Assembly (NCBI GenBank): GCA_963575745.1
Contig: CAUYUJ010000255.1
Span: forward strand, 1 to 64,000
DNA from: Prorocentrum cordatum
Taxonomy: Eukaryota
Direction: 5' to 3'
Length of the DNA stretch: 64,000 nucleotides
The notes under the pieces: generated by a model
The model's input: only the letters and a program-made list of their open reading frames with translations
What the model was told of the DNA's origin: nothing
Database searches by the model: none
Shown here: positions 3,752-47,708 of the stretch, one piece after another
Numbering within the stretch: the stretch's first letter is position 1
Layout of the letters: each line of letters begins with the position of its first letter
Position numbers and translations under genes: made by a program

Positions 3752-5360
3752 TCATCGAAGTGTGGTCCTGAACCCGATCCGAGCGCCGTGGAGGCTCCGC
3801 GAACACGAGAAAACATCGGCGGCGGGCGCATAGAGAGGGCTCGTCGGCGTTGCAGAGGCATCGGACACCGATGCGGCTGGACATCGAATCTTCTCCGCCT
3901 CGCGGCAATCGGCATGATCCGGCACGGTTGGAAATGTCTCCGCCACTGATGTGGACTCCTGAGTGGACCCGTGGCTGAGCAGCTCGCCTCCTGGCAAGAC
4001 GGCCTCGACTTTGGAGAACGACGACCGCAACATACCTAAACAAGTGCAAGTCATCAACCGGGCGTGTACATCCGCCAGACGGTCAGCGGGCGTTGCACTA
4101 ATCTTGAGAAACTCCTTACCGCCCAGCGTCGTGAAGAGTACCGAGACGCCATCAAAAGACGCTTGCAGAACCAGTGCCGGCAAAGCCCACGGCGGCAAAG
4201 ACTGTACATACTGGAGGTGGGCCGGACTCGCCTGCAGCCACTCTGCCCAGGTTCTGCAGGAGGGCACCTGGCACTGGCCGTAGAAATTCGCCCCGTGGGC
4301 TACGGCCACGCCGTCGCTCCTGAGCAGGACGGTGTGGCAGCCGCCAGCAGCAACTTCTGTGTAAGTCAGGCCACTCTCGAGACTTGTTATGCAGCACTGG
4401 GCGGCCTGATTCTGGCCAAACGCCACGGCCGTGCCATCGCTCTTGAGCAGAGCGGTGTGGAAATCACCCGCGGCCACCTGCGCGTACGTCACAGCTCCGC
4501 CCGGCGCCGGAATGCTGCACTGGCCCGCGTCGTTCCGGCCACAGGCCACGGCAGCGCCGTCGCTCCTATCGGCGGCCAGCCCGGGGGGGGGGAAGTGAGA
4601 GGGGGCGGGCCTTCTCAGAAGGTTCGGAAGTTCTCGGGCCTTCGGACAAGTTTTCTGAGCCTTCCCCGAAGACACAGAGAACTTCTCAGAAGGCCAGAGG
4701 GCTCCTTAGAAGCTCTGCCGCCTTATGAGAAGGCCTTCTTTGGAGGAGGAGGAGGAGGAGGAGGAGGAGGAGGAGGAGGAGGTACCCATACCTTCTCCTT
4801 CTTACTTCCCCCCCCCGCTCGCCACCGAGCCTGAGCAGGAGGGTGTGCGTGCCGCCAGCGGCAATCTGCGTGTAGGTCAGACCTTCATCCAGCGCTGGGA
4901 TGTCACACTGGCCCCAGCTCCTCGCTCCAACGGCCACTGCCACGCCATCGCTCCTGAGCAGAACGGTGTGGTCTTCGCCCCCAGCGACCTGCGCATAGGT
5001 CAGCCCATGCTGCAGCGCTGGAATGCTGCACTGGCCCAATCCATTCGAGCCGCATGCCACGGCCGCACCATCGCTTCTGAGCAGAACAGTGTGGACGAAA
5101 CCCGCACCAACCTGTATGTACGTTTGACCTTCGTCCAGGATCGGTATGTCGCACTGGCCACAGAAGTTGCCACCGCAAGCCACGGCGGCCCCATCGCTGC
5201 GGAGGAGGACCGTGTGGACAAACCCTGCAGAAACCTGCGTGTAGGTCAAGCCGCCGCCCAACGCCGGAATGTCGCACTGACCCGCGCGGTTTTGGCCGCA
5301 CGCCACTGCCACGCCATCGCTCCTGAGCAACACGCTGTGTTTCTTACCAGCAGCGACCAT
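3752..5360 (-). CDS. RCC1-repeat (RCC1/BLIP-II beta-propeller) protein; exons 5360-4831 and 4565-3752, ~447 aa after splicing
   Basis: About 6-7 RCC1 repeats (YTQVAAGxxHTVLLRSDGxAVACGxNxxGQC). The two ORF halves join in frame (LLLR-SDG) when 4830-4566 is removed. Confidence 0.85.
4566..4830 (-). mobile_element. Introner-like TIR element forming a 265-nt GC-AG intron in the RCC1 gene
   Basis: 3-bp duplication CCT (4565-4567, 4830-4832). Imperfect ~33-bp TIRs: atcggcggccagcc-G10-aagtgaga versus tcttactt-C10-gctcgccaccgag. Minus strand reads AG|GCTCGG...GATAG|G. Confidence 0.8.
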
Positions 5361-7730: not shown

Positions 7731-9617
7731 ACAGAGGATTCTGACCCACTACCCTGGCACGGTGGCGGAATGGGCTTTAGGCCGCCAGGTAATCCAAGAG
7801 GGGCCTGAAATCGTCCAAGCTCCCGAAGAGAGCCCCCAGAGGGCCACACACACACAGAATTCCAAGCACCCCCCCAAACAATACCAGGAAACTTTGGTTT
7901 GACACGGTTGCGGGCTGTTTCGGGAACCCTCACGGGCCCTCGGGGCCCCTCTTTGAGACTCTTGGGACTTCCATTTAGCCCAGCGAGAGCTCGAAGTAGG
8001 CTCCAAGAGAACCCGGAGAGAGCTCCAAGATGGTCGCCAGAAGGTTGCCCACAGTATCATACTAAGGCACATTAGTGGGATGGCCGTGGGCCACGAGATA
8101 ATCCAAGAGGGGTCTGGAATCGCCCGAACGCCCCAAGAGCCCCCAGAGGGCCTCCAGATGATTCTCCACGAGACGACCGGGCTCGCCTTCTAGATGGTGG
8201 AGATGGCGCTGCATTGATGCCGACATGGTCCAAGATTCCCTCAACGACGGCGGCGATGACCTGGTCTGACCTAAGATGGCCCCAAAATGACTCCAAGACT
8301 GTTCCAGATGGCAACAAAAGGCTGCCATGAAGCCTGAGGAGGCTACGAGAGCCCCGAAACAGGCTCACAGGAGGTCTCCTCCTCCTCCTCCTCCTTGTTG
8401 TCCGCCTCCTCCTTTCCTCCTTCTCCTCCTCCTGCTTTTCCCCGTCCTCCTCCTCCTCCGCCGCAGCCTCCTCCTCCCCCTTCTGATTCCACCCCGCTTC
8501 CTCCCCCAGCGGCTGCGAGAGCACATGGGCAGATAGCTTGGTCAACCTGTGCCCCTCGTCATACGCTTCTTGGGAGCCACCTGGGGCTTCAAGGGCTCTC
8601 TTCGGGGCGTATGGCCCCAACCTCCCCGAACACATCCGGCTGTCACCTTCATCATGAGGGTCGGTAGCGATAAACCTTCCGCTGTCATTCTTTTTACGAC
8701 TCAACGGGTCTGGGAAGCAGGACCAGCCTCCCTCAGGAGCCCCTCAGCACCGTCCAAACGGTCCCCACCCCCACTCGGCCACGCATCTCAGCCCCACCCC
8801 GCCCCCCAGTTGGGGATAGGCCCCTCCAGGGTCGGCGGCACCAGCCGTAAGACCTTCACAGTACACATGGGTGTATTTAGCGCCGGGGGCCCCGACGACG
8901 TTGGAGGCCGTGGGGCCACCGAGCGGAGTCCTCCGCTTCCGCTCCTCGGCGCCTGGGTCCGGGCAGGCGCCAGCGTCCCTTGCGCGCGCGGTGGGGAGGG
9001 GGCGCCGGCGGCACCAGAGGGAGGAGGGCGTGAGAGGAGGAGGAGGAGGAGGAGGAGGAGGAGGAGGAGGAGGAGGAGGAGGAGAAGGAGGAGGAGGAGG
9101 AGGAGGAGGAGGAATGTGGAGAGCAGAAGGCAGAAAGGGAGGATGCGACGGATGCGGAGAAGAAGGAAAAGGATGAGAGGAGGAGGAGGAGGAGGAGGAG
9201 GAAGAAGGAGGCAGCGGATGAGGAGGAGGAAGAGGAGGAGGAGGAATGTGGAAAGCAGAAGACAGAGAGGGAGGATGCGAAGGATGCGGCGATGAAGGAG
9301 GATGAGGAGGAGGACGACGAGAAGGAGAAGGAGAAGACCTGATCACCACGCATCATGTGAGCGGCTGATGCAGCACGGCCCAGGAAAGCCCCGCCGGCGC
9401 GAGCGTATGTCGCGCCGCAGGTTGGGAAATGCGCTGGGGATACACCATGTCACCATCCCCCCCCCCCCCTCCCCCCGTCGCCGTGCTGAAGCGCCGCGCA
9501 CGGGCGCGGCGCGTCCTACCAAGCGGGGGAGGGGGGGCAGCGGCGGCGCACTTTATGCGCTCTTGATCCGCTCCCCTACGAACTAGCCACCAGCCCAGCC
9601 AGCTCCCCCCCCGCTAC

Positions 9618-9639
9618 TCCGTAGCCATTTTGGCTCAAG
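9618..9639 (+). other. Genomic relic of dinoflagellate spliced leader (DinoSL), perfect copy
   Basis: TCCGTAGCCATTTTGGCTCAAG matches consensus DCCGTAGCCATTTTGGCTCAAG at 22/22, 78 nt upstream of an ATG. Confidence 0.97.
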
Positions 9640-9717
9640 TTCTGTCCTTCGAGCTCCCGACGGCCCTCGCACTCCACGCAGGACCTCCGCTTCGGGGGCA
9701 AAACCACAACCGCCGTC

Positions 9718-10509
9718 ATGCCTCCCAAGCGCGGCGCCAAGGAGTTCAAGTTCCAGGTCCAGCTTGCCGGAGAATGGGCAGACTTCGATGCCAAAGAGGA
9801 CAAGCTGCTGAAGCAAGCCTACCTGTCTGGGTTCCCGAACATGAAGTACCGCTCGCGCGGACAACAGTACGAGGTGGACTTCAGGAACCTCGTGCAGAAG
9901 AACAAGGGCACGGGCAAGACGCGGGACATCCGACCGCCGCACAAGTGGAAGCCGCCCCCCGCGCCGATCATGGAGCCTGGCCCCATGACTTGCATCAAGG
10001 TGCCGCCTGGGGGCCCAGGGACTACGATCCAGGTTCCGCACCCGAAGGACAAGAGCCGGTTCATCAGCGTCTCGGTGCCCGCAAGCGCCCGGCCTGGCCA
10101 GCCCATGATGGTGCCTGTGCCGCCGCTGGAGGAGGTCGAAGAGCCCGCCGTGGTCCCGTCTGCGCCAGCGCCGGCTGCGGCGGCGGCGGCGGCGGCCCCG
10201 CCCGCGGCCGCAGAGAAGCCCGAGAAAAAGGGCTGGAGCACCGGGGCCAAGGTCGCCGCTGGCACGGCTGGCGTGGCCGCGGTGGCTGGCCTGGCCGTGG
10301 GCGGCGTCATCCTCGGGGAGCACATCGTCGAGGAGGGCTGGGACGCCACGATGGAGGACCTGGGCGACTGGGCTGGCGACGCAGGCTCGACCGTCGCGGG
10401 TGTTGCGGAGGATGCCGGGGAGGCTATCGCGGGCGCTGCGGAGGACGTCGTGGACTGGGTGGGCGACGCCGCGGACACCGCCGGCGACTTCATCATGGAC
10501 GTGTTCTGA
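9718..10509 (+). CDS. WWE-domain protein, intronless retrogene (263 aa)
   Basis: WWE-like segment FQVQLAGEWADFD...YEVDFRNLVQKNKGTGKTRDIR; strong GC3 bias; gccgtcATG context; DinoSL upstream; C-terminal hydrophobic and acidic repeat region. Confidence 0.85.
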   Translation: MPPKRGAKEFKFQVQLAGEWADFDAKEDKLLKQAYLSGFPNMKYRSRGQQYEVDFRNLVQKNKGTGKTRDIRPPHKWKPPPAPIMEPGPMTCIKVPPGGPGTTIQVPHPKDKSRFISVSVPASARPGQPMMVPVPPLEEVEEPAVVPSAPAPAAAAAAAAPPAAAEKPEKKGWSTGAKVAAGTAGVAAVAGLAVGGVILGEHIVEEGWDATMEDLGDWAGDAGSTVAGVAEDAGEAIAGAAEDVVDWVGDAADTAGDFIMDVF

Positions 10510-13500
10510 GGGCGCCGCGGGCAAACTGCTCGCCTGTGGGCAGGGCTGGCGCCAGCCATGTCCAGAGAGGGAATGCGGGAGGGGACGACGAGAAGGAGAA
10601 GGAGGAGGAGGAGGAGGAGGAGGAGAGCCACGGCCGAGGAGAGCGGGGCCAACCATCGTCGTCGTCGGCCCGCCCCTTGCCCCTCGTGGCCGCGCGCCGC
10701 GGCGGTTGCGATCGGCAGCCGCTGCAGCCGCCCGCCCGCGGAGGCGGCACCCCTCCGCGCGCCACCGAGCTGCCTGAGGCGGGGCCGAGGGCCCCAAGAC
10801 GGCCCCCCTCGGCCCCGCCACCTGCGAGGAGGCGGCGAGCGCGGACGCTTGGCCCCCGCCAGGCCGCGCTGGAGGCGGCCGCCACGCCGCGCACCGTCGG
10901 AGAGCCCGCCTGGCATCGCCGCGCCAGGCAGCAGCGTGCGGAGTCCAGGGTGCTGCTGAGGCTGCGCACCGCCGCGCAGGTGCTGACCCAGCACTACTGA
11001 GCGCAGCGGCAGCGGCATCAGCAGGAGGATGCCGAGATGGCCAGCAGGACGTGGACAGCTTGGCAAAACTGCAGCTGGAAAGAGCAGCAGGATGCCCAGT
11101 GGAAACAAAAAGTGCCATGGCGACGGCACGAGGAGAAGAGGACACCCAGCAGGAAGAGAGGACCGCGCCCGCCAAGCGCCAGGAGGAGAGAGCGATCTCA
11201 CGAACACTGCGGAAGCAAGGAAGAGGGCAAAAGAGGAGGACGCGCTGGGGGCGGAACCACCAGCTCCAGCGTCGCCAACCCCACGGAGCTGAAGAAAATC
11301 CTCGAGCAGAACCCGATGGCGACGCCGACGGCAACAAGAGCCCACGAAGCCTTCCACGAGCCGGTGGAGGGAAAGCACGTGGCGCTGCAGAAACAGACAT
11401 ATCGAGAAGAGGTTCGACGACCTCGGGCTGTTCCTGATTACGGCTAAGCAAAGTGATCGCAGCCCTCAAGTCCGCCCTTGTGAACATGCTCCCCAAGCAC
11501 AAGCGCAGGAGGGAGACGACGAAGGAAATGGAGTACATAGAACAGCATATATATACATATATATACACAGCACAGAAGGAGCATGACACGTGGAGAACAG
11601 AGCTCGACAAATGGCAAGATAGGAAGGCCCACATGAGGAACGTTGTCAGCGAGCTCACGGACACGGACGAGGGCGACACAGATGGCGACGACGAGGAGTA
11701 TTACGACAAGCCGAGGAGGACAGAAGGAAAGGAGGAATACCGTCGACGCCCATCGCCTCCCGGGGAAAGCCAAGAGGAAGAAGACACGCCAAGAAGACAG
11801 GGCAACAATATAGATGACATCGTCGAGCGCCTTTCGAAAATCACGCAGGCAATGGAGCTCCAGGCCAAAGAGCAGAAGGACGTGGAGCTGAGTATCAACG
11901 CGAAGTATAAGAGAAGCAGCCAGGGAAAGAGCCAGATGGAGGAGGCTGCGGCACGCGAGGAGGCCCTGAGACGGAGTCAGGAGGAGTCAAGTGCAGAGTC
12001 GGAGACGAGCAAGAGGATATTGCAGGCAAGGGCCGACAAGACGGCAACTTTGGCGGCAGAGGGAAGAGAGGCCAAGCTAAGGCTGGAATTCCTAGGGGTA
12101 GACGAGAGACAGATAATAATGCTCCATGAGGAACAGGCGCAATGCCAAAGACAGAGAGAGGAGATGAGAGCCCAGGCCATGATCAGGCAACAGCACGTGC
12201 ACGAAAGGCAGAGCAAAGCCGCAAACTGCGTGCGGATGCAGCAGCAAGCGCGCGAGGAGGCTCAGAAGGAGGCTGAGAGGCAGCACAAGATCAAGCAGGA
12301 AGCGCTGGTGCGAGAAGTGGCGCGAGCCAGGGCCGCGGCGTTAAGATGCGAGCAGGCAAACGCAGAACAAAGGGAAATTGCGAACCAGCGCCACAGCATG
12401 ATTGCGCAACACATGCTGGCCCAGGGTGGCTCCCAGATCGCGACGCCCCAGCCGCAGTTCGAGCAGGCCCTGGCGGCACAGAGGAACGCGTGGGAGGCAA
12501 GAAGGCTGCGAGCGCAAGCACGGAGGGACATGGAAGTGAGGGAAGCCATCGCGCAGAAGGGTAGGCAGAGGGGCGGGGCACGCGCATGTTACAAGCGCAA
12601 ACTCAAGCGTGCTAGCCGACATGCCGCGGAGGGCGCGGGCCTCATTGCAGCGCCAGACCGCGACGTCAACGCCAACATGGAGGTCGCGGAGAAAAAGAAA
12701 GAGTACGGGAGGGGGGGGGGGCGGCGCGCCAGCAGCGGACCCTGCATGGAGCCACCAGGGACGAGGGCATGCCAAGCCCCTTCTCGATCGCCGAAGGCGC
12801 ACGGTGGCAGAGCTGGGCAGCAGAGGGAAGAGGGAGGAGGTGCGCGCACCGCCCAGGGCGTGACGCTCAGGGGCGTGGCTGTTGCCCCCTTCCAATCAGC
12901 ACCCCCAGCGGACTCGCGAACGGGGGGATGAGATCGACCAGGCTATCGCGGCAGCGGTGGATGAGCAAGAGCTGCACGACGCCGAGCTGCAAAAGGCAGG
13001 ATACGAGATGCCCAGGAGGCAGGAGGAGACCGGCAGGTGGGCGTCGGTGGCACCGTCCCCCATGTCCAATTCGTGGAGTACCCCTGGCTCCGACGACATC
13101 CAAGACGCCGGCATCGAGAGGGAGCTGCAACGCCAGGAGCAGATAAGGACCGAGCAACAGGAGGATGACAGGGAGAAAGCAGAGGAGCAATACGAAACCA
13201 AGCAGAAAGAAGAAGAGGAGGCAGACAAGGCCACTGCTGCAGACATCGAGATGGTGCTGGAACATGCCGAGAAGGAGCAGGCCGAAAGAGAAGCCGTGGC
13301 GGAGAGCATCAGGAAGGGCGAAGTAGGAGACGAGACTCCAGGGGCGAGGGCGGCGGTCCGGGGCCCCTCCGCTCGCACGCGACACCCAGCAGCTGACCAA
13401 CGACAACGACCGCCCGCCCACCCAGGGTAGGGCTTGCACGCATGTCTGCGACGAAGAGACAGCTCCTCCACAGGGGCGCCGAGAATACTCCGACCCCCGT

Positions 13501-21100: not shown

Positions 21101-21796
21101 ACGCCAACGCAGGCAACATCGGCATGTTGAATACCGACCGCGACGACCTGGACCTGAGGCTCGGACAGTCGATCCAGAGAAGGCGTGCCTGGTACGAGGT
21201 AATGGATGCAATCTCCGCGCTGGTTGTCAGGCCCCCTTTCCGCTGCCTGGACTCCAGCAGCAGACAACGAGGCGAGCGCAGACAGAAGCACCGACTACCC
21301 CTTGGGGTAGACCTGGGCCCGGCGCCGCCGCGCAAAAGAAGGTCCCCATGGAGAGCGAGGCGTGGTGGTTAACGATGGGCCTGATGAAGATGGCTAAGGA
21401 GCAGGAGGAGGAGGAGGAGGAGGAGGAGGAGGAGGAGGGGGAGGAGGAGGAGGAGGAGGAGGAGGAGGAGGAGGAGGAGGAGGAGGAGGAGGGAGGAGGA
21501 GGAGGAGGAGGAGGAGGAGGAGGATGCCGCCAGTGGAGATCCGAGAGGCCCACGTCGCGGCGACGGCCGAGGTGAGGCGAGCGACGACAGGGTGCACGAC
21601 GACCAAGCTCGAAACCAGGAGACGCGTCGTCGCCAACGGGATCGTCATGGACGACGGCTCGGACGTACCCCTGAGGGCGGCAGGACCATCAAGGACTTGC
21701 AGTTCGGCTAGAGTCAGCCCGTATAGTCAGGATGCGCGCTGAGGATGCCTGGGCCCTGGAGGCCCACTTCGAGGCTGTTCGAGCGGGGCACGTAGA

Positions 21797-22733: not shown

Positions 22734-22877
22734 AGGAGGGGAATGCAGGGCCGCTCTCATTATTTGTCAACGCTCCATCTTGTGCTGCCGACGTTGCGTC
22801 ATTGAGCGCGCAGACGAGGAGGCACGAGAGCCCCGAAAGAAAAACAGTGAGCGAACAGTAGTAGAACATTCAGACAA
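22734..22877 (-). repeat. Terminal repeat B2 (144 bp) of the DIRS element
   Basis: Identical to 23002-23145. Confidence 0.95.
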
Positions 22878-22919
22878 GCCGCGGGCTTGACGAGCCTCAG
22901 GCATTGGGCTGGCACAGGG

Positions 22920-23007
22920 AGGCGAGAAAGAGGCTTGAACCGCATTGGTTGCGGATCGGACGCCGCGGACCAGCGCCCCTCCTTCACGTGCACGCACCCC
23001 CAGGAGG
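22920..23007 (-). repeat. Internal repeat A2 (88 bp) of the DIRS element
   Basis: Identical to 29557-29644; overlaps B1 by the 6-mer aggagg (23002-23007). Confidence 0.95.
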
Positions 23008-23145
23008 GGAATGCAGGGCCGCTCTCATTATTTGTCAACGCTCCATCTTGTGCTGCCGACGTTGCGTCATTGAGCGCGCAGACGAGGAGGCACGAGAGCC
23101 CCGAAAGAAAAACAGTGAGCGAACAGTAGTAGAACATTCAGACAA
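23002..23145 (-). repeat. Internal repeat B1 (144 bp) of the DIRS element
   Basis: Identical to 22734-22877 (aggaggggaatgcagggccgctctc...gaacattcagacaa). Confidence 0.95.
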
Positions 23146-23179
23146 CCCAAACCTCCCGAACCGAAGGTAAGTGTAGTTA

Positions 23180-26100
23180 TCAAATCATATATTCACTGCG
23201 AGCTTTCGAGACCAAAACGGAAGCTAAAGTGTGAGCCAGGCGCGCAGGGTAAGGCATCGCGATGACGGTCCAGCGAACCCCCCCTGGGCCAGCTCCCTCG
23301 AGGTGCTGATGGGGGCGCCCTGTGCGGCTGCAAATCCCGCGGCCAGGACAGATCCGACTTAGTTTCGTCAGGTCTTCCGCGGGGACGTTTCCCACCAAAA
23401 AACGAGTTCTCTTTCTCCAGGGCTTTCCCCAGAGACAGTAGTCAGTGACAATAGAGACGGCGCGGCTACGCGCTACGAAAACTTTCAGTTTGTGATCATG
23501 CCACATCTTTGATGTGTGAGGGTTCTCAAGAACCCAGGGGACCCCGGCAGACTGGGCGGACCTGGCCAGATCAAGAGCTGCGTCCAGCGTGGCGTTACCG
23601 AGAGCGACCTTGGCCAGGTCGCGGGCGTCGAGGCCCGGGATCCCCCTAATAAACTTACGAGAGCGAATTGGGTACGTCCGATCCCGAGCAGCAGACCACG
23701 AGCTGCAGGGCGGAGCCAGCATCATTCCGATACATCGGCCGCGAGCGAGATCCTGTTTGATCGGCCTGCGGACTCTCGAATCACACAGGTCACCTGAAGG
23801 CCCGTGGAGCAGGTCCCACTCCCGAGCACAGAAACCAGCCACACGAACTTTCTTGCTAACTATCCCGCAGCCTGAAAAACACTCGGCAATATAAGTCTTA
23901 TCTACACATGCTGGCGACCGAAGGCTAGAGGCTCTCGTCTTCCGAGGAACGCATCCGCGAGCAGTGACTCGCAGCGCGTGCAGTGGCTGCGCGTCAGAGC
24001 GTCGAGCTTCCCGAACTCGAGCCCCACTCGCGCGTGCTTCTCGTACCGAGCCACGGACTTCAGCTTGCGCCAGCGGCCCCGCTTCATCACTTCTGGCAGC
24101 CCGCGAAGGTCGCGAAGCCGGTCGTGCGAGGCCCCGCTGTGCCGGAGTTGGTAGGGCACTAGCTTCAGCCCAAGGGTCGCGCCAGCGGCCCTCGCGTCGG
24201 CCAGCAGGTCCTGGTAGGTGAACGGGAAAGCCCGCTCCGCCGCTGGCCTTGAGTTGATCTCCCTCCAGACCACGTCGAGCCACTTGAGCGACTTCATGTC
24301 GAGCTGGAGGCTGTCGTCGAGCACCCCCACCTTGGTAGGCTGGCCCAACTCCTCCGGAGCCAGCAGCAGGCACCAGTACTTGGACACCCCGTCCAGGGGG
24401 CCTATGAAATGGCCGCACCTGATGTTCAGCATCTCGGACGGCCTCAGGTAACACATGAAGCAAAGCAGGATCGCCGCCGCCTCGTAGCGCTTGCCACGCG
24501 CCAGAAGCCAGTGGCAGACTGCCGCCCAGACGCAGAAGGGCATCGGGTGGCGGCTCCGGCCAGGGCACAGGCGGCGCCAGCCCTTCACTGCTCTCCACGA
24601 TCGTGGGAGCGAAAGCTGGCCAATCTTCCCAAACTCCGGGAGGACGTGAAGGACACCAGCCAGCAATTTCTCCCCCACATTGGCCTGCTTGCCAGTAAGG
24701 AACAGCTCCGTCATGTGGATACACAACGTCCCATCCAGCTGGGACGGCGGGTGAAGGCCAAGGCGCCGCTGCTTCGCCCAGTAGTAGAGCCGGGAGACCA
24801 GGAGGTGGTAGTAGTCCCTGGTCTTGGTCTGCACGGCGTAGGACTCCAGCAGCGTCCCCATCTGGTCCATGGCCTGCCGAGCGGAGAGGAGGTACTTGGC
24901 GCGTCTGCGTTTGCACCGACCCCTCATGGCTTCGTCCAGGTCGTCGCTGTCTGAGCTGTCCTGCACGCCCGCCGCCTCGTCGTGGTCCAGGCCGGTGTCG
25001 GCCTCCTCGAGCCCGACGCTGATCAGGGGCCCGGCGAAGGCCTCCTTCTCTGACAGCCCCTCGAGCTTCGGCGCCTGCACCCGGTCCAGCAGCACTGGTA
25101 TTGCCACGCCCAGCGTCCGCCTCTTGCTCTTGACTCCCGCCGGCGGCTTCACCACGGACGAGAGCTGGGGCCGGCGAAGCCGCGTCGGGCACGAAGGCGC
25201 CGGCGCGGACAGGCGGGCTTGCCGCTTGGGGGCTGCAGGCCGCCGGGCGGTCGCTGGTCGGCGGCCGAGGCGTGCTTCCATCGGCATCTCTCGATGGGTC
25301 GTCGGCTGGATTGAATTCTGATTTGATCCAGCGGAAATACGGACGAATGTTATGGATAAGACACAGGGCGCGGAAGCGCCGAATTTGCCGTAGTACAACG
25401 TAGTTTTTACATCTTCCCCGAGCGAACGAGAGCGTGATAGCCATGTTGTCGATCAGGAATAGGTTTCGACTGTTTCGAACTCCTTCGGCGATCAGACTCT
25501 CCAGACCCAGAACTAGTGCCCGAGCTTCTAACTCCAGAATGCGTTCTCCAAAATTCCACTTACCCTTTCCAGTAACTCTCCAGGGTGATATCAAATCGGA
25601 CTCGGCGATGCAGCCCCGGGCAGAGAAGAGACCCCCTTCCCCGAACGGCACCTCCGGAAACAGGCTGTCAATCATCCAGACCTCCTCCCCCGTCGACAAC
25701 GGCAAGGCCTCCCCGATGTCGATGATGGTGGTGGTGGTGTCGGTGAACGATAGCGGATGGTGATTGTCATTGTCCTCGTCTAACGGATACAGTGCTGCGC
25801 TCGCTGCCTCGCGAGCTCCAAGGCTGTGCACACGACGAAATCGGGACACCTCTGAAGTGCGAGCGATGCTAGCCACTGCTTTGGCCGTCAACGAGCAACG
25901 GCAGTGCCCCCATCCCTCGAGGGAGGCATCTGTGGCTACTATCGTCTCACACCAAGGTAGATCCCACGGCGCCCGCACCAGAGGCAGGAGCCCAATGAAG
26001 GCCTGGAGCTCCTGCCGCACGGTCGGCCACACCACCGCCGCGGCGTCGCCGTACCGGTGGATGAAGGCGTAGCAGGCGTTGAACACGCTTAGGGCCGTTC

Positions 26101-27535
26101 GGTCCAGCAGGCTGACGAACGTGGCGTGCCCGACGAGCCGCTCCAGCTGCTTGCCGCTGAGGCGTCGCCGCCGAAGGGCCCAACGAAAAGCGCCATCGAT
26201 GCGCCACCTCCGTTTCTCGGTCACCTGCGTCTCGAGCCGGTGGCCGTCCAGCACGCACCCCAGCGTCTCGCCGCCATTGCCCTTCAGGTCGTGCTCGTGC
26301 GTCTTCAGGCCGACGGCGTCCAGGGCTGCGCAGCCCTTGTTGAGCGCCAGACCCACAGGCCGCTCGGCGCTGCCGACTACGTCCAGGTTGTCCACATACA
26401 GGGCGTACCTCACGTCTGCCCCCTTTCCCAGCACGATGGGGGCGGTGTAGTCGGAGGCCCTTCTCTCGGGCCCCAGCTGGTGCACCTTGTTGAGGACTGC
26501 CTCGCTGCACTTCTGAGCGACCCACAGCGACCACGTAAATCCCATGGGGAACGATGCCAAGCAGGGATACACCGGCGCCTCTCGCGCCAAGCTGTCCCGC
26601 AAAGGCGTATGCTTCGCCGCGATCGGATGGAGGGCGAAACACCGGTGCATGCCGTCGGGGAGCCGCAACCGGTGGAAGCAGTTCTCGACGTCGCCGATGC
26701 CCAACGTGAAGATGCAGTCGGGGTCCTCCTTGTAGTCCGCCTCGCACTCGATCCTGGACAGCCCCTCGCTTGTGATCAGCTCGGTGTGCGGAGGAGCTTT
26801 GAACCGGCGGTTCCCCCTCCTCGCGTCAATGATGAGTCTCAGGGACTTGTCCTTCTTTCCAACAAAAAACATACCTGCGTGCTCGATGGGCTCAGTGGTC
26901 CACTGGATCAGGCCCCGGCGCTCGAGGTCCAAAATGAACAGCCGGTAGGTCTTCTGGTTCCGCGACAGCTTCTTGTCCCAGAACGGTTTGATATCACCCA
27001 GCCTCTCGTTGAGCTTGTTAAACTCATCGGTAGACCGCATCATGCTCTTCTGCCAACCCTCGATGATCAGGCGGTCCTCAGCGTCCAGCACCTCCGTCAC
27101 GACTGCTGCATCGTGGACGTGCTCGGGGAGCGAGACGGAACCAAACTCGTAGGGCACGACGGTAGTGTAGGTCTCCTCGGCATCGTAGCTGAGATGACCT
27201 CGGAGAAGCACGCGAGCGGCTTCTTCCTGGGAAGGCGCTGTCACCGGCTTCGCGATCACAGGGGCGACGAGAGTCGCCACGGCCTCCTCATCAAATTCAT
27301 TGGCGCCTGGCGGCCCTGAAGTCCGCGCACCCAGGCACCAGTGGAGCGCATCCACGGTCTCGTTCTTGCGCCTGAACTCCTCCACGCCCAGTCCATGACG
27401 ACGTCTGGACCGACGCGAGGGAGCACCAACCCGCGACGGGATGTCGTAGGAGGGCAGGCGGCGATGCACTCCCATGCAGGACCTGGTAAAGGCGACGGGG
27501 GCTGGCCCACTTCCCCCGCCGCTCGCCTCCATCAT
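23180..27535 (-). CDS. DIRS pol: reverse transcriptase + RNase H, in frame with a C-terminal C5 cytosine DNA methyltransferase (1451 aa ORF)
   Basis: RT motifs: MFFVGKKDKSLRLIIDAR, IGDVENCFHRL, FPMGFTWS, YVDN (26387-26398). RNase H motifs: TDASLEGWG, ELEARAL, IDN, WIKSEFNPADDPSR. DNMT motifs: I (ECFSGCG), IV (APPC), VI (LENP), VIII (RKRTRF) in ~23180-23900. Confidence 0.9.
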   Translation of the reverse strand: MMEASGGGSGPAPVAFTRSCMGVHRRLPSYDIPSRVGAPSRRSRRRHGLGVEEFRRKNETVDALHWCLGARTSGPPGANEFDEEAVATLVAPVIAKPVTAPSQEEAARVLLRGHLSYDAEETYTTVVPYEFGSVSLPEHVHDAAVVTEVLDAEDRLIIEGWQKSMMRSTDEFNKLNERLGDIKPFWDKKLSRNQKTYRLFILDLERRGLIQWTTEPIEHAGMFFVGKKDKSLRLIIDARRGNRRFKAPPHTELITSEGLSRIECEADYKEDPDCIFTLGIGDVENCFHRLRLPDGMHRCFALHPIAAKHTPLRDSLAREAPVYPCLASFPMGFTWSLWVAQKCSEAVLNKVHQLGPERRASDYTAPIVLGKGADVRYALYVDNLDVVGSAERPVGLALNKGCAALDAVGLKTHEHDLKGNGGETLGCVLDGHRLETQVTEKRRWRIDGAFRWALRRRRLSGKQLERLVGHATFVSLLDRTALSVFNACYAFIHRYGDAAAVVWPTVRQELQAFIGLLPLVRAPWDLPWCETIVATDASLEGWGHCRCSLTAKAVASIARTSEVSRFRRVHSLGAREAASAALYPLDEDNDNHHPLSFTDTTTTIIDIGEALPLSTGEEVWMIDSLFPEVPFGEGGLFSARGCIAESDLISPWRVTGKGKWNFGERILELEARALVLGLESLIAEGVRNSRNLFLIDNMAITLSFARGRCKNYVVLRQIRRFRALCLIHNIRPYFRWIKSEFNPADDPSRDADGSTPRPPTSDRPAACSPQAASPPVRAGAFVPDAASPAPALVRGEAAGGSQEQEADAGRGNTSAAGPGAGAEARGAVREGGLRRAPDQRRARGGRHRPGPRRGGGRAGQLRQRRPGRSHEGSVQTQTRQVPPLRSAGHGPDGDAAGVLRRADQDQGLLPPPGLPALLLGEAAAPWPSPAVPAGWDVVYPHDGAVPYWQAGQCGGEIAGWCPSRPPGVWEDWPAFAPTIVESSEGLAPPVPWPEPPPDALLRLGGSLPLASGAWQALRGGGDPALLHVLPEAVRDAEHQVRPFHRPPGRGVQVLVPAAGSGGVGPAYQGGGARRQPPARHEVAQVARRGLEGDQLKASGGAGFPVHLPGPAGRREGRWRDPWAEASALPTPAQRGLARPASRPSRAARSDEAGPLAQAEVRGSVREARASGARVREARRSDAQPLHALRVTARGCVPRKTRASSLRSPACVDKTYIAECFSGCGIVSKKVRVAGFCAREWDLLHGPSGDLCDSRVRRPIKQDLARGRCIGMMLAPPCSSWSAARDRTYPIRSRKFIRGIPGLDARDLAKVALGNATLDAALDLARSAQSAGVPWVLENPHTSKMWHDHKLKVFVARSRAVSIVTDYCLWGKPWRKRTRFLVGNVPAEDLTKLSRICPGRGICSRTGRPHQHLEGAGPGGVRWTVIAMPYPARLAHTLASVLVSKARSEYMI
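23902..25287 (-). CDS. Tyrosine recombinase (integrase) of the DIRS element, ~461 aa from first ATG
   Basis: YR catalytic signature: YLRPSE (R), TKVG (K), YQLRHSGASHD (x-x-R box), KRGRW, SVARYEK (Y nucleophile). ATG at 25287 follows the RNase H end. Confidence 0.92.
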   Translation of the reverse strand: MPMEARLGRRPATARRPAAPKRQARLSAPAPSCPTRLRRPQLSSVVKPPAGVKSKRRTLGVAIPVLLDRVQAPKLEGLSEKEAFAGPLISVGLEEADTGLDHDEAAGVQDSSDSDDLDEAMRGRCKRRRAKYLLSARQAMDQMGTLLESYAVQTKTRDYYHLLVSRLYYWAKQRRLGLHPPSQLDGTLCIHMTELFLTGKQANVGEKLLAGVLHVLPEFGKIGQLSLPRSWRAVKGWRRLCPGRSRHPMPFCVWAAVCHWLLARGKRYEAAAILLCFMCYLRPSEMLNIRCGHFIGPLDGVSKYWCLLLAPEELGQPTKVGVLDDSLQLDMKSLKWLDVVWREINSRPAAERAFPFTYQDLLADARAAGATLGLKLVPYQLRHSGASHDRLRDLRGLPEVMKRGRWRKLKSVARYEKHARVGLEFGKLDALTRSHCTRCESLLADAFLGRREPLAFGRQHV

Positions 27536-29127
27536 GATGCTGGCGGGGGCGCTGGGAGCCCGGGCTTGCCTTTCTTGGTCTTGCCTCCTGCCCCTCGGCC
27601 CCCGCCGCCTTTGTTACCACCTGCGCCCGGCGCCGCGCCGGCCGCGCCTGGGTCCTCCTCGTCGTAGCCCTCCGCCTGCGGCGCGTACAAGCCGCCGCGC
27701 TGCACGCCGCCCTCCAGAGCCTTCTCCTTGAGCTTCCTCGCGCCGTAGACACGCAGGTCCGGAGCCACCGCGTCCTCCAGCATCGCGGTGCCTGAGTACA
27801 CGCCGGCCATGCTGTAGTTCGGCTTGGCGCCCGGCACCGAGTGGGCCTCCAGGAGTGTCTGGAAACGCCTCATCAGCACCTCGATCCCTGCTAGGCAGGG
27901 CATGTTCAGCTGGTCGTAGCAGCCGAACTGCTCGAAGCTCTCGGCCAACACTCGCAGCTCGTGGTAGGCGCGGTCCGAGGGCGCGACGTGCTTTCTCCTC
28001 CCCCATGCCTCCAGCCAACTGGTCGGCATCGGCCCGAAGCGGTCGATGTGCTTCATCACGCTGAGGGCGGTGCTCGGGCCGTCGAGCGGCCAGTCGCGGA
28101 AGGAGTGCGAGCTTGACTCCCTACATACCTCCTTCCAGTCCTTGTGCCGCTCCCCCTGCGAGTCCCAGTCGACCTCCAGCACGCGGACGTCCACCGCGAC
28201 CTCGCCAGCGGCCGCCGGTGCTGCTGCGCCGGGCGGCCGCTCCCCGAGCACGCGCTCGAGTAGGGGGCTGCCTTCTCCTGCGTCTTCGATCTCGCGGCCA
28301 CCTGCCTCCCGCCTGAAAGCGCCGACAGGGTCGTCGTCGAGCGCGATGGTGGGCGGCTCCGGCGCGCCGCGCGGCGTTGGCGGCGAGAACTGCACCAGCC
28401 GCTGAGTCTTGAAGTCCTCCTCCGAGACTTCCGGGCTCACGGCCATCACCGGCGCCTCGAGCCCTGTGTCCGAGATGGCCACGCCGAAAAGCCGCCCGCC
28501 GAAGACTAACAGCCTCGGCTCCACCTCGCTGCCGATGTTGCCGAAGGCCAGGCCGGGCTCGGAGACCCGCCAGGTCACTGCGGGAGGCTGGTCGTCGCCC
28601 TCGAGCCTATCGAGAGCACCTGCGAAAACATCACCTCGTCGATCGCCTCGGGGCCCGGAGCGGGCACGCGCCGCCGCGGTCAGCGGCAAGGATGGCCCAG
28701 GCACAGGCAGCGCTCCGCGCCTTGGGAGGCGCCGCCGTCTGGGCATCGGCTCCAGCGTTCCGTCGGTGGAGACCCACTGCGTCGGTGCCGGCCAGTCTGG
28801 CAGCCCGAGCGCGCCTCGAAGGGCGCCCGCATGCAACTGGGCCGCGGCCAGCAGGTCGAGGCACTCCTGTCGCTGGACTGGCCGGTCGAACTGCACGATG
28901 TCGACCGACTCCAGCCTGGGCGGGCGATCCCCGAAGCCCTTGAGGGCCACCACCTTCTCATACAGGGAGGTGTCTTCCACGTAGAAGTGCCCCTGGGCGG
29001 TGTAGATCATCCACACCGAAGTCGAGAGCGGCCACACCAGCACGCGCTCATGTCCCCAGGCGTCACCCTCGAAGAACACCACGAACGTGTGCCCGGGCAA
29101 GGGCGTAGTGGGCACGACGACCGCCAT
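27532..29127 (-). CDS. Gag-like ORF of the DIRS element (~531 aa from ATG)
   Basis: Long non-repetitive ORF directly upstream of pol; its TGA overlaps the pol ATG (ATGA at 27535-27532). Gag identity is inferred from position only. Confidence 0.75.
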   Translation of the reverse strand: MAVVVPTTPLPGHTFVVFFEGDAWGHERVLVWPLSTSVWMIYTAQGHFYVEDTSLYEKVVALKGFGDRPPRLESVDIVQFDRPVQRQECLDLLAAAQLHAGALRGALGLPDWPAPTQWVSTDGTLEPMPRRRRLPRRGALPVPGPSLPLTAAARARSGPRGDRRGDVFAGALDRLEGDDQPPAVTWRVSEPGLAFGNIGSEVEPRLLVFGGRLFGVAISDTGLEAPVMAVSPEVSEEDFKTQRLVQFSPPTPRGAPEPPTIALDDDPVGAFRREAGGREIEDAGEGSPLLERVLGERPPGAAAPAAAGEVAVDVRVLEVDWDSQGERHKDWKEVCRESSSHSFRDWPLDGPSTALSVMKHIDRFGPMPTSWLEAWGRRKHVAPSDRAYHELRVLAESFEQFGCYDQLNMPCLAGIEVLMRRFQTLLEAHSVPGAKPNYSMAGVYSGTAMLEDAVAPDLRVYGARKLKEKALEGGVQRGGLYAPQAEGYDEEDPGAAGAAPGAGGNKGGGGRGAGGKTKKGKPGLPAPPPAS

Positions 29128-29542
29128 ATTCCCACGGTTGGGGTCGACACCCGCACGCCGCGAGGAGTCCACCGATGAAGCTGGTCGTCGCCCCGACGAT
29201 GGTCTTCACGAAGTTGAAAACCGGCAACTCCTCGCACTCCGATTCCGAGACGTGCTCGATCACCGGCTCGCACGCCTGCACCCAGGCTGGCCCAGCGTCT
29301 TCTTCGCACCTCCAGGGTGCCGGGCAAGGGGTACACGAACACTCCACCACCGAGACGTTCACGCCAAGGTCCTCCACCCCCACGCGGCCGACGTCCTGCC
29401 GCGCAGCCGTCGCCGAGTGAAGCGCGAACTCGCCCAGCCGCAGCGCGCTTTCCAGCGCGATCCCAGGCCGGTCCGCCACGAGCCGCCACAATCCAGCCAG
29501 ATATGGGGCGGCGAGGAAAGCGAGGGCGCAGGGGCGGGGCAT
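29063..29542 (-). CDS. Small accessory ORF0 of the DIRS element (159 aa, hydrophobic N-terminus, Cys cluster, putative TM segment)
   Basis: First ATG 15 nt after repeat A1; non-repetitive; overlaps the gag start by 65 nt; hydrophobic FVKTIVGATTSFIGGLLAACGC. Confidence 0.45.
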   Translation of the reverse strand: MPRPCALAFLAAPYLAGLWRLVADRPGIALESALRLGEFALHSATAARQDVGRVGVEDLGVNVSVVECSCTPCPAPWRCEEDAGPAWVQACEPVIEHVSESECEELPVFNFVKTIVGATTSFIGGLLAACGCRPQPWEYGGRRAHYALARAHVRGVLRG

Positions 29543-29556
29543 GAGCGCCCGACTTC

Positions 29557-29644
29557 AGGCGAGAAAGAGGCTTGAACCGCATTGGTTGCGGATCGGACGC
29601 CGCGGACCAGCGCCCCTCCTTCACGTGCACGCACCCCCAGGAGG
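29557..29644 (-). repeat. Terminal repeat A1 (88 bp) of the DIRS element
   Basis: Identical by eye to 22920-23007 (aggcgagaaagaggcttgaacc...cacccccaggagg). Confidence 0.95.
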
Positions 29645-30833
29645 AAGGAGGAGGAGGAGGAGGAAGGAGGAAGGAGGAGGAAAGTTCGAGGAGGCCTTCC
29701 GCCATTCTCGGCATATGGGCGACCCGGGCGAAAGACTGGCCAGCATGGACACCCGGAGGGGCGAACGGATTTGGCTCTGGACGGGGAGGAAGGGGGGGAA
29801 AGAATGAGGATGGGTCGTAGCCATCGTCGTTGTGGCAATCGACATCTGCCCGTCCGCGCGTCCGTCCGTCCTCGTCGTCGCTGCTTCCGTCCGAAAGAGG
29901 GGGGGAGAGGAGGGAGAGGAGGAGGAAGAGGAGGGAGGAGAAATAGAGGAGGTAGGGAGGAGAACGAGGATGGAGAGGAGAAAGAGGAGGTAGGGATGAG
30001 GAAGAGGATGGGGGGAGAGGCGGGAGAGGAGGAGAAAGAGGAGGGAGGAGAAAGAGGAGGCAAGCAGAGAGAGAGGATGGGGGGGAGCTGAGGGGGAGGA
30101 ACGGCAGCGAGAAGAGAGAGCAGGGCGCCGGCGTGCCGGAGGAGGAGGCAGAGGGGAGGACGGAGAAGGAGGCCACAGACGGGAGGAGGGGGAAGGTTGC
30201 TCCCGGGGATCAAGGCTGCTCCCTCCAAGGGATACAACTCACATCGAATCATGCCCCAGTCAGTGCTTGCACTGAAGGGGTCATAGCGGATGTTGAAAGA
30301 TTTGGCTAACGCTTCCCGCCTATTTTGGTGGCCAGCTGGGTTCCCGGGTTCCCGGTTCTGGATTCCCAGGTTCATGGTTATTGGTTCCGGTCCGATTTCG
30401 GTGGGTTCCGGGTTCTCGGGATCCCGGGTTCCTGGTCGATCTCCTTATCGATTTCTGCACCGACCTTGCAGACGTGCTGCAGTGGATTTTCCCCATGGAT
30501 TTCAGTCAATACAAAGCCCCGAAACGGCGAGTGAAAAACGAGGTGGATTGCGCGTGGAGTCTGTTTAGTCTCCATTCCTGGCCCAAACGAATCCGCACAA
30601 CATTCACCTCGAAATCTGGAACGAAATGCTCCAGGACACTCCGGGCCCATCCTGTCGTTTTCCAGTCGACATCCGCTCTGCGATGTTGGCGCCATGACAC
30701 GGCGGAGGGCCCCAGGCCCAACGGGCAGGGCGCTCCTCGGGTCCTCCGTCCCAGGCGCCTGCAGGCAGACCGCGCGCCGGCGAGGCTGGCTGAGCGGTCA
30801 GCAGCCTCTCTCGCTCCACCTCGCTGAGCGATC

Positions 30834-31555
30834 TCCTCCTCCTCCTCCTCCTCCTCCTCCTCCTCCTCCTCCTCCTCCTCCTCCCCTTCCTCCTCCTCCT
30901 CCTCCCTCCTCCCTCCTCCTCTTCCTCCTCCTCCTCCTCCTCCTCCTCCTCCCTCCTCCTCCTCCTCCTCCTCCTCCTCCTCCTCCTCCCTCCTCCTCCT
31001 CCTCCTCCTCCTCCTCCCTCCTCCTCCTCCTCCTCCTCCTCCTCCTCCCTCCTCCTCCTCCTCCTCCTCCTCCTCCTCCTCCCTCCTCCTCCTCCCCTCC
31101 TCCTCCTCCTCCTCCTCCCTCCTCCTCCCCTCCCCTCCTCCTCCCTCCTCCTCCGCCTCCTCCTCCTCCTCCTCCTCCTCCTCCTCCTCCTCCTCCCCCT
31201 CCCCTCCTCCTCCTCCTCCGCCCTTTCCTCCTCCTCCTCCTCCTCCCTCCTCTTCCTCCTCCTCCCTCCTCCTCCCCTCCTCCGCCTCCTCCTCCTCCTC
31301 CTCCCTCCTTCCCCCTCCTCCTCCTCCTCCCTCTCCTCCTCCTCCTCCTCCTCCTCCTCCTCCTCCTCCCCTCCTCCTCCTCCTCTGACCCTCCTCCTCT
31401 CCTCCTCCTCCTCCTCCTCCTCCTCCTCCTCCTCCTCCTCCTCCTCCTCCTCATCCTCCTCCTCCTCCTCCTCCTCCTCCTCCTCCTCCTCCTCCTCCTC
31501 CCTCATCCTCCTCCTCCTCCTCCTCCTCCTCCTCCTCCTCCTCCTCCTCCTCCTC
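30834..31555. repeat. (CCT)n microsatellite, ~720 bp; many similar CCT/GGA tracts, e.g. 142-470, 9033-9112, 21400-21522, 49764-49960, 56280-56765, 57170-57470
   Basis: Direct inspection. Confidence 0.95.
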
Positions 31556-40199: not shown

Positions 40200-40299
40200 N
40201 NNNNNNNNNNNNNNNNNNNNNNNNNNNNNNNNNNNNNNNNNNNNNNNNNNNNNNNNNNNNNNNNNNNNNNNNNNNNNNNNNNNNNNNNNNNNNNNNNNN
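40200..40299. other. Assembly gap (100 N)
   Basis: Run of n between two satellites. Confidence 0.99.
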
Positions 40300-47000: not shown

Positions 47001-47540
47001 TCGTGCCGACCTTGCCTGGAGTCGAGCTTCGGTCGGTGCTCATCGCGGCCTCCACCTCCAGGAGGGCCTCCGGCATAATCATCACCATCCGGGCGGTGCT
47101 CATCAGGTAGCGCGAACCGCATGTTGACGCCACTCCGTCGTGGATTGCGCCGGTGTCCTCGGTCCGTGACCGCGGTGCCTACGATGCGCGCCGCCGTGGC
47201 CAGGCCGCAAATGCAGGCAACATAACCCCGCGATGTTCAATGCGAGGGGCACTGGCGAACGGCTCCACGACGACCTTGGCTCGGCATCCTGGCGTCATTG
47301 ATACCCAGCGACATCCAGGCAACGTGCCCGTCCTCGATGCACTGGCGGAGATGCCTGATGCGGCAGGATGCTACCATCGCGCGCAGCCGGGCTCCCGTCA
47401 GCGCAAAGTGCGCTGCTCCAGCCGCGCGCCCCGGCCAGAGCGCAGGCGGCGGCCTGAGCCAACATGATGGACCCACGAACCCGGAAAGGGATATAGACAT
47501 GTGGAGCATGGACACGTTTTCATGATACCCAACTGGGCAA

Positions 47541-47683
47541 CACCTCACGAAACATCCCACGAGACACCTCACGAAACAGCCCACGAGACACCTCACGAAA
47601 CATTCCACGAGACACCTCACGAAACTTTTCACGAGACACCCCGCGAAACATTCCACGAGACACCCCACGAAACATTCCACGAC
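47541..47683. repeat. 24-bp tandem repeat (12-bp subunits), ~6 units
   Basis: cacctcacgaaacattccacgaga repeated. Confidence 0.9.
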
Positions 47684-47708
47684 GACTGGCAACCACTCAC
47701 CCAAGGCG

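Follow-up and report, generated by a model that had tools for sequence, protein, structure and literature searches.

A minus-strand tyrosine-recombinase retrotransposon of Prorocentrum cordatum with split direct repeats, an overprinted recombinase gene and a cytosine-C5-methyltransferase-like domain at the end of Pol

The stretch of Prorocentrum cordatum DNA analysed here (contig CAUYUJ010000255.1 of assembly GCA_963575745.1, positions 1 to 64,000, hereafter the window) contains a complete tyrosine-recombinase retrotransposon of 6,911 bp, lying on the minus strand at 22734-29644. It is likely an intact member of the DIRS order with split direct repeats, whose Pol protein ends in a domain resembling the cytosine-C5 methyltransferases (C5-MTases); methylation of the element's own cDNA and a recent origin for this copy are what we infer beyond that. 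Read along its own strand, the element consists of the repeat A1, open reading frame (ORF) 1, the Pol ORF with the recombinase ORF nested inside it, the repeats B1 and A2, a unique spacer and the repeat B2.

The termini were delimited by repeat search and pairwise alignment. A1, the 88-bp 5' terminal repeat (29557-29644), is 100% identical to A2 (22920-23007; 88/88), and B1 (144 bp, 23002-23145) is identical to B2, the 3' terminal repeat (144 bp, 22734-22877; 144/144), with an extended match of 147 nt at 99% for the second pair. Exact repeats this long are far beyond chance. The minus-strand order is A1 (29644..29557), the body, B1 (23145..23002), A2 (23007..22920), the spacer (22919..22878) and B2 (22877..22734). 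The spacer between A2 and B2, 42 nt in length, is unique and dissimilar to the sequence that follows A1. B1 adjoins A2, the two sharing the six nucleotides CCTCCT (23002-23007), and the same hexamer opens A1 and closes B2; at the B1/A2 boundary it is the putative circle junction or crossover core. Both flanks of the element are CCT/TCC-type microsatellite: A1 starts, with CCTCCT, directly after such sequence, and B2 is followed by a TCC-type microsatellite. An earlier note on the same DNA had described an intact tyrosine-recombinase retrotransposon with split repeats, and with both pairs identical and three ORFs uninterrupted that description holds. The note mentioned neither the 42-nt spacer nor the full nesting of the recombinase ORF in Pol.

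Low-complexity sequence also occurs further out. Long microsatellite tracts of GGA/GAG type and of the complementary TCC/CTC type are found some 1.2 kb away on either side of the element (21376-21547 and 30804-31500), and they register as 'inverted repeats' up to 124 nt long with 90-98% complementarity; being of low complexity, they are not element termini. No second copy of the element was found by blastn within the window.

Three long uninterrupted ORFs, all on the minus strand and read with the standard code, fill the body. From stop to stop they measure 557 codons (ORF1, 27532-29205), 1477 codons (Pol, 23180-27613) and 516 codons (recombinase, 23902-25452, in another frame than Pol). ORF1 itself runs from an ATG at 29127-29125 to a TGA at 27534-27532 (27532-29127, 531 codons) and is gag-like by position only. 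It matches no Pfam family; its C-terminal part is ~30% identical, by tblastn, to the ORF upstream of Pol in L001-L004, metagenome loci with related elements and a GC content of 43-49%. From its first ATG (27535-27533) Pol comprises 1451 codons (23180-27535) and contains, in a single frame, the reverse transcriptase (RT), RNase H, a linker of ~460 codons and the methyltransferase-like domain. The same one-frame layout is found in relatives of 1400-1540 aa and in L001.

The first ATG of Pol overlaps the ORF1 stop as ATGA (27532-27535), as it does in L003 (6317-6320), a relative ~30% identical. In L001 the two frames are separate, the Pol ATG lying 57 nt past the end of ORF1. The ATGA overlap suggests that translation of ORF1 and Pol may be coupled by termination and reinitiation. 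A -1 frameshift from ORF1 into Pol was also considered, since Pol is in the -1 frame with a stop-to-stop overlap of 82 nt, and was judged less likely than reinitiation because of the ATGA overlap here and in L003 and the lack of frame overlap in L001.

The RT core (26300-26857, minus strand) carries YVDN as its motif C (26390-26400, about residues 406-409 of Pol). A profile of the whole Pol alignment gave three chance-level matches and no RT among PDB sequences, and the RT assignment therefore rests on L003 and on the motifs. L003 is homologous to residues 120-775 of the window's Pol (28% identity, E=4e-68) and passes the RVT_1 cut-off (32.9 versus 29.6 bits, E=7e-8). In an alignment of 16 long relatives the aspartate of motif A and the Y-x-D-N of motif C are conserved. 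Among the collected relative proteins of at least 800 aa, 27 of 48 have Y[VL]DN and none has YxDD; the motif reads YCDN in L001 and YADN in L002 and L003. The possibility that YVDN is an inactivating lesion of this copy is ruled out by the family-wide asparagine. A family-wide YxDN in an evidently successful RT is a small puzzle for RT enzymology.

The RNase H-like region (25289-25951, minus strand) is assigned by motifs and position. Its D..E..D..D columns are conserved in the long-relative alignment (TDAS, LEARA, DN and NxADxPSR). No RNase H family was found in the Pfam scan, in which DNA_pol_viral_C, the hepadnaviral RNase H region, appeared below threshold (E=4.4e-4). Together, these motifs point to an RT and RNase H of retrotransposon type, as the DIRS order requires.

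Counted from its first ATG, the recombinase ORF (23902-25287, minus strand) has 461 codons; it is offset from Pol by +1 and is contained entirely in the Pol linker (23905-25288). The 32-sequence profile of the recombinase found XerC-like (0.056, over the LRHS motif), XerD (0.24), IntI4 (0.48) and XerA (0.86) among PDB sequences; a 4-sequence profile had found no recombinase. Phage_integrase (PF00589) is matched by 11 of 32 recombinase relatives, at best with E=2.8e-5. The conserved residues are R282, K319, R382-H383, W406 and Y415, and we take these R, K, R-H, W and Y columns to fit the catalytic pattern of tyrosine recombinases. No integrase (rve) family turned up in Pfam scans of the element's proteins. 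These data point, weakly but consistently, to a tyrosine recombinase in place of a DDE integrase.

The recombinase ORF begins just past the last RNase H motif, and its end is one or two codons short of where the conserved part of the methyltransferase-like domain starts. What appears in Pol as a linker is therefore the recombinase gene in a different reading frame. Over the 461 recombinase codons the Pol frame contains 0 stops and the third frame 16. When synonymous recombinase codons were resampled in 2000 trials, keeping the protein and the codon usage of the element, the Pol frame acquired 11.1 stops on average, and not one trial left it open. The same holds in L001, which is 25-32% identical and has 45% GC: there Pol occupies one frame (7905-12134), the recombinase lies inside it at the same +1 offset (9883-11376), and the Pol frame has 0 stops observed against a mean of 34.7 after resampling, which again left it open in none of 2000 trials. 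The alignment of long relatives shows hardly any conservation in the linker columns, and 12 more relatives of 1,325-1,543 residues have, in a single frame, the RT, a poorly conserved linker of like length and the methyltransferase-like domain. The whole recombinase gene is thus overprinted in the +1 frame of a linker that is kept open while its protein is poorly conserved, a detail that is new relative to the earlier note.

Substitution patterns bear on what is selected in each frame. Related contigs from three marine metagenome runs differ from the window by 455 substitutions, and the counts refer to the 40 of these with the best support. Where the sequence encodes the methyltransferase-like domain alone, 10 of 11 affect the third base of a Pol codon (binomial p=1.3e-4). 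Where the two genes overlap, 14 of 19 affect the third base of a recombinase codon, and hence the first base of a Pol codon (p=3.8e-4), and in RT-RNase H the count is 5 of 6 at third positions. This bias indicates purifying selection on the recombinase and on the methyltransferase-like domain, with the linker frame merely kept free of stops. The element is a clean case of overprinting, with selection on one frame and stop-avoidance on the other, maintained between genomes of 45% and 65% GC.

The C5-MTase-like domain (23183-23899, minus strand) corresponds to residues 38-276 of P0001, the last 276 residues of Pol. The FxGxG, PPC and ENP motifs that the earlier note had read in it are all present, as FSGCG (P0001 residues 45-49), PPC (100-102) and ENP (162-164), together with a WRKRT stretch and a Cys/His cluster (C192, C221, C227 and H234). 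No ATG lies near the start of the domain and its first methionine comes after motif I, so that a functional domain would be made solely as part of Pol.

A phmmer search with P0001 of 1.84 billion representative proteins returned 3,796 clusters at E<=1e-3, of which 1,617 also reach E<=1e-10, and many members of this family are the C-terminus of proteins of 1,000-1,770 residues. From P0001 and 47 domain-sized matches, picked for shortness from the 150 listed, we built a 48-sequence alignment with a mean column identity of 34%. Its invariant residues are G47, C102, R116, E162, P164, C192, W198, K200, T202 and C227, which include the FxGxG glycine, the PPC cysteine and the ENP glutamate. The profile of this alignment gave 23 sub-significant matches among PDB sequences, 21 of them C5-MTases (E 0.19-1.2), and HMMER aligned FxGxG and PC with the corresponding motifs in M.HaeIII and M.HhaI. 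Among the Pfam families, DNA_methylase (PF00145) is the sole one matched by more than one member of the alignment (E<=1 for 9 of 48, the lowest being 3.9e-4). In the ESM Atlas, the closest cluster carries the automatic name of a C5-MTase family (score 0.97), which serves as a lead only. Another ESM Atlas hint, towards a small C5-MTase of phage type (score 0.90), likewise stays a lead only, because tblastn of the domain against 50,697 phage records found no match at E<=1. WRKRT, which stands where motif VIII is expected, is separated from the C-terminal helix by about 40 residues, and these hold the conserved C221, C227 and H234. With C192, these three residues may serve as zinc ligands.

Structure prediction extends the comparison beyond the motifs. 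An AlphaFold2 model of the domain from the single sequence was unusable (predicted local distance difference test, pLDDT, 32.6); repeated with the 48-sequence alignment, the prediction reached a pLDDT of 90.1 and a predicted template modelling score (pTM) of 0.85. All of the matches listed by Foldseek were C5-MTases. In a second look with VIA-align the top 50 were again all C5-MTases (Z 10.8-12.9, 186-219 residues aligned), covering M.HhaI over residues 10-327 at Z 12.9 and DNMT3A over 629-912 at Z 12.0. A scan of 48,161 PDB representatives that was independent of Foldseek placed C5-MTases at ranks 1-13 (Z 9.8-11.8, 177-215 residues). In the model FxGxG follows strand 1, PC follows strand 4 and ENP lies at the end of strand 5, as expected, while the correspondences for motifs VI and VIII (WRKRT) were placed by position in the model and not by residue-level superposition. 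Identity in the structural alignments to C5-MTases is 10-16%. The domain is thus predicted to adopt a class I methyltransferase fold that is arranged as in C5-MTases throughout the catalytic domain, and the model leads us to conclude that it probably belongs, as a very divergent member, to the C5-MTase fold family, with its catalytic motifs conserved.

The same scan bears on whether the domain could be a generic Rossmann fold, for example a dehydrogenase-like one, in which the methyltransferase motifs are coincidental. Short-chain dehydrogenases come next after the C5-MTases, close behind with Z up to 9.8 and about 150-170 residues aligned. Ranks 1-13 nevertheless belong to C5-MTases throughout, with ~40 more residues aligned, and the sequence profile, the Pfam matches and the placement of the motifs after strands 1 and 4 and at the end of strand 5 agree with them, so much so that coincidence appears very improbable.

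Which C5-MTases the domain is derived from is less clear-cut. It could be a Dnmt3-derived DNA methyltransferase (DNMT) of the SymbioDIRS-Dnmt3 lineage, which would make the element an ordinary member of that lineage in another dinoflagellate order. The catalytic domains of DNMT3A/B align over their whole length at Z 11.6-12.0, tied with M.HhaI, and the short stretch at the target-recognition position presumably resembles the short one of Dnmt3. The A-coding-B-A-B termini, a methyltransferase and an RT in Pol, a separate recombinase ORF and an RT poorly seen by Pfam are shared as well, as far as the accessible part of the original description goes (PMC5890265). However, by the same account that family was found with PF00145 (PMC5890265), to which the present family is almost invisible; neither L001 nor L003 has a PF00145 match at E<=1. 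The structural Z-scores tie Dnmt3 with the bacterial enzymes and show no preference for the former. On this evidence we consider a SymbioDIRS origin possible, though rather doubtful.

Our own proposal, held tentatively and at somewhat less than an even chance, is that the domain is a minimal C5-MTase of ~240 residues that is not a Dnmt3 and is standard in a very large clade of dinoflagellate DIRS elements. It would then be a third, so far unannotated, type of methyltransferase in tyrosine-recombinase retrotransposons, with a Cys/His knuckle in place of the target-recognition domain, sitting where Dam-like domains sit in classical DIRS elements. The clade would comprise at least 3,796 clusters at 50% identity, from Prorocentrum, Polarella and relatives at 43-49% GC, and the domain would be reached only by translating through the overprinted recombinase gene.

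The substrate may also differ from the element's DNA. The methyltransferase fold could act on RNA, as Dnmt2 does, or could be a nucleic-acid-binding or structural module of Pol. The Cys/His cluster where a normal target-recognition domain would stand is compatible with this, and the structural matches include enzymes of Dnmt2 type (EhMeth, Z 10.4; Schizosaccharomyces pombe Dnmt2, Z 10.1). RNA methylation has been raised, in the available text of PMC5890265, for a DNMT borne by a LINE that failed on DNA in yeast. A structural role is at odds with the catalytic cysteine, the ENP glutamate and the glycine of the S-adenosylmethionine (SAM) loop, invariant in 48 sequences at ~34% identity, and with the third-position bias, a sign of purifying selection that favours a working active site and no particular substrate. 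We regard a role other than methylation of the element's DNA as unlikely.

Turning to the taxonomic distribution, the closest full-length named relatives are unnamed products of P. cordatum (51-82% identity over partial alignments). Relatives of the recombinase are also from P. cordatum, and the more distant relatives are from Polarella glacialis; the nearest named ones are not from Symbiodiniaceae. One predicted protein of 180 aa (P0184), identical to the methyltransferase-like domain at 178 of 180 positions, bears the label of a green alga in EukProt, while the other named relatives are dinoflagellates; the label may come from cross-contamination of that data set. The element of L003 is flanked on both sides by TA-rich microsatellite (4610-4696 and 10637-10805), which hints that members of the clade may target simple repeats matching their junctions.

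Sequencing runs were also searched for copies. One run (X1), which may be the source sample, contained 73% of the element's sampled words, in contigs that differ by 0-4 letters, and marine metagenome runs from three coded studies (X2-X4) contained copies 93-97% identical. The matching contigs are short and none spans the element, and their depth is no measure of copy number. A contig in X3 jumps back from 29587 to 22965 and was considered as a circle or tandem junction; the jump sits inside the identical A copies, the shorter side has 40 letters, and we read it as repeat ambiguity.

The earlier note had called the element very young. The 0 differences in 232 bp of repeat, the intact frames and a CpG observed/expected ratio of 0.99, compared with 0.83 for the window and ~0.6 for contigs with older relatives, are consistent with that, although by the rule of three the repeats bound divergence only below ~1.3%. 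This copy retains every family-invariant residue of the methyltransferase-like domain, along with the invariant columns of RT-RNase H and of the recombinase. It is apparently recent and, judged from its sequence, plausibly still competent. Alternatively, it may be intact but immobile, either silenced or never transcribed, with the identity of its repeats due to gene conversion or assembly collapse. The loose bound on divergence leaves room for this, and the short contigs do not span the full structure independently; that no listed run containing the element is recorded as RNA counts neither way. Immobility fits less well with three long stop-free ORFs, undepleted CpG and the full set of family-invariant residues. 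The 178/180-identical predicted protein in another public data set and the near-identical X1 contigs also speak for mobility, and the 93-97% identical copies in the three marine runs indicate that the family has recently spread. An immobile copy thus seems somewhat unlikely.

Several results weigh against the reading of the element as an intact DIRS retrotransposon with a C5-MTase-like domain. Most concern profile searches of this copy, which the earlier note had put forward for the ORFs and which came back largely empty: RVT_1 (E=0.11) and Phage_integrase (E=0.025-0.079) remained below threshold, no RNase H family was found, and PF00145 gave nothing at E<=10. A C5-MTase profile match for the C-terminal region had been set beforehand as the test that could refute the note's DNMT claim, and this copy has none. 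Its relatives do little better, with 0 of 15 long relatives and 0 of 85 further relatives matching PF00145 at E<=0.01 and the best match over 148 relatives (E=3.9e-4) staying below the gathering score. In NCBIfam, dcm was matched by 1 of 48 relatives (E=0.053) and otherwise nothing useful was found, and phmmer of the domain against PDB sequences returned 0 matches. The structural margin over generic Rossmann dehydrogenases is modest (Z 11.8 versus 9.8), though the ranking is uniform, and the normal target-recognition domain is missing, the stretch available being too short for one. What remains of the 'DNMT domain' of the earlier note is a resemblance to C5-MTases in predicted fold and conserved motifs, a remote-homology argument and not a family assignment.

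Other points of the same kind concern the rest of the element. The RT has asparagine where nearly all reverse transcriptases carry the second catalytic aspartate. The nested recombinase might be translated from an mRNA of its own, by internal initiation or after a +1 shift somewhere in 25452-25288. A target-site duplication would be indistinguishable from the repeat, since both flanks are the same microsatellite. Finally, repeat identity bounds age loosely, and repeats may be partly homogenised at each retrotransposition.

With these points taken into account, we propose the following mechanism for the element as a DIRS retrotransposon with a C5-MTase-like Pol domain. A transcript running from A1 to B2 would be reverse-transcribed into cDNA, whose ends would be joined into a circle under the guidance of the internal B1-A2 junction. 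The recombinase would then insert the circle at a CCT microsatellite that matches the junction core, CCTCCT, by crossing over between the two, and would leave no target-site duplication. As part of Pol, the methyltransferase-like domain would be placed beside the new cDNA, where its conserved cysteine, together with SAM, could serve to methylate cytosines in the nucleic acid of the element itself, as has been proposed, and in part tested, for SymbioDIRS-Dnmt3. Dinoflagellate genomes are heavily methylated at CG, and retrotransposon DNMTs have been suggested to make their own cDNA pass as 'self', according to the portion of the literature available to us (PMC5890265).

If the domain is active, such enzymes are not confined to Symbiodiniaceae and are far more numerous than Pfam-based screens show, the undercount arising because a family of thousands of clusters has no curated profile. 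Should it further prove to be the minimal non-Dnmt3 enzyme tentatively proposed above, dinoflagellate 'DIRS elements without DNMT' would carry a cytosine-MTase-like enzyme missed by PF00145, and the number of retroelement-borne methyltransferases in these genomes would be much larger than reported.

The window has a GC content of 55-68%, which fits the genus Prorocentrum. A Pfam scan of 15 other ORFs in it of at least 330 codons (for example 9583-11700, 47237-48616 and 49325-50716) found nothing at E<=0.001, and many of these ORFs may be non-coding, the sequence being GC-rich. An assembly gap of 100 N occupies 40200-40299.

Compared with the C5-MTases M.HhaI, M.HaeIII and DNMT3A/B, the domain as modelled shares the fold over the whole enzyme, motif I (FxGxG), motif IV (PC), motif VI (EN(V/P)) and a basic stretch at motif VIII. 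It differs from them in having no significant sequence-profile match, in its very short target-recognition region with conserved Cys/His residues and in its fusion to the end of a retrotransposon Pol. The C-terminal motif differs too, being PYP here; in C5-MTases, motif X reads GN(A/S)V.

Cytosine methyltransferases appended to a retrotransposon Pol, as here, are also known from KnitGypsy-Dnmt3 and from the EpiLTRs of Cymbomonas and Euglena. As described in the parts of these sources available to us, those are long terminal repeat (LTR) elements of Ty3/Gypsy type with DDE integrases, and their DNMTs are recognisable as Dnmt3-like or as sister to DNMT4 (PMC5890265; bioRxiv 10.64898/2026.05.21.726589). 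A 2026 preprint on Dam-bearing retrotransposons gives, in its accessible text, SymbioDIRS-DNMT3, SymbioLINE-DNMT and Gypsy-DNMT3 as the known DNMTs borne by transposable elements. A literature search on DIRS retrotransposons of Prorocentrum found no paper in the collection searched.

The PAT-like and DIRS1-like elements resemble the present one in their gag-like ORF, their Pol with RT, RNase H and methyltransferase, and their tyrosine recombinase, and the split direct repeats are as in PAT-like elements (PMC3266345, here and below in the portion available to us). In addition to the A1...B1-A2-B2 repeats of that superfamily, the present element has the extra 42-nt spacer between A2 and B2. Their methyltransferase is Dam-like (PMC3266345), that is, of the N6-adenine type, which is structurally unrelated to C5-MTases (PMC5890265, likewise in part), whereas the domain here is C5-MTase-like. 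No Dam or other N6-methyltransferase family was found for this copy at E<=10, and MethyltransfD12 was matched by 1 of 48 relatives at E=0.42. The absence of a Dam-like methyltransferase means that the element is not PAT-like in the strict sense. The RT motif also differs, YL/IDD in those elements and YxDN here (PMC3266345). DIRS1-like elements integrate by short homology between junction and target, without target duplication, and about half of 28 elements have long overlaps of the pol and recombinase ORFs (Piednoel et al. 2011, PMC3266345). In their overlaps the catalytic part of the recombinase lies outside, whereas here the whole gene lies inside Pol, with the methyltransferase-like domain after it; and the sequence that junction and target would share is 6 nt (CCTCCT) here, against 3 in theirs (PMC3266345).

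The closest published parallel is SymbioDIRS-Dnmt3 of Symbiodiniaceae, and the earlier note was right that DNMT-bearing DIRS elements were already in the literature. As far as its available description goes, the termini of that family follow the pattern A-coding-B-A-B, the DNMT is encoded within the Pol ORF and the recombinase has an ORF of its own; de novo CG methylation by a retrotransposon DNMT was reported, and self-methylation of cDNA was proposed (de Mendoza et al. 2018, PMC5890265). In common with it, the present element has a dinoflagellate host, termini of this form, a methyltransferase-type domain with RT in Pol, a separate recombinase and an RT poorly seen by Pfam. Unlike it, the present element has a methyltransferase-like domain that escapes PF00145, the profile that defined that family, and relatives in Prorocentrum and Polarella, in a host outside Symbiodiniaceae. 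By description alone, the domain of ~240 residues with a Cys/His cluster at the target-recognition position is a further difference. The part of PMC5890265 available to us makes no mention of a recombinase fully contained in the Pol linker. The concept itself is thus already published; the value of the present element lies in extending it and in providing an intact copy to clone and assay.

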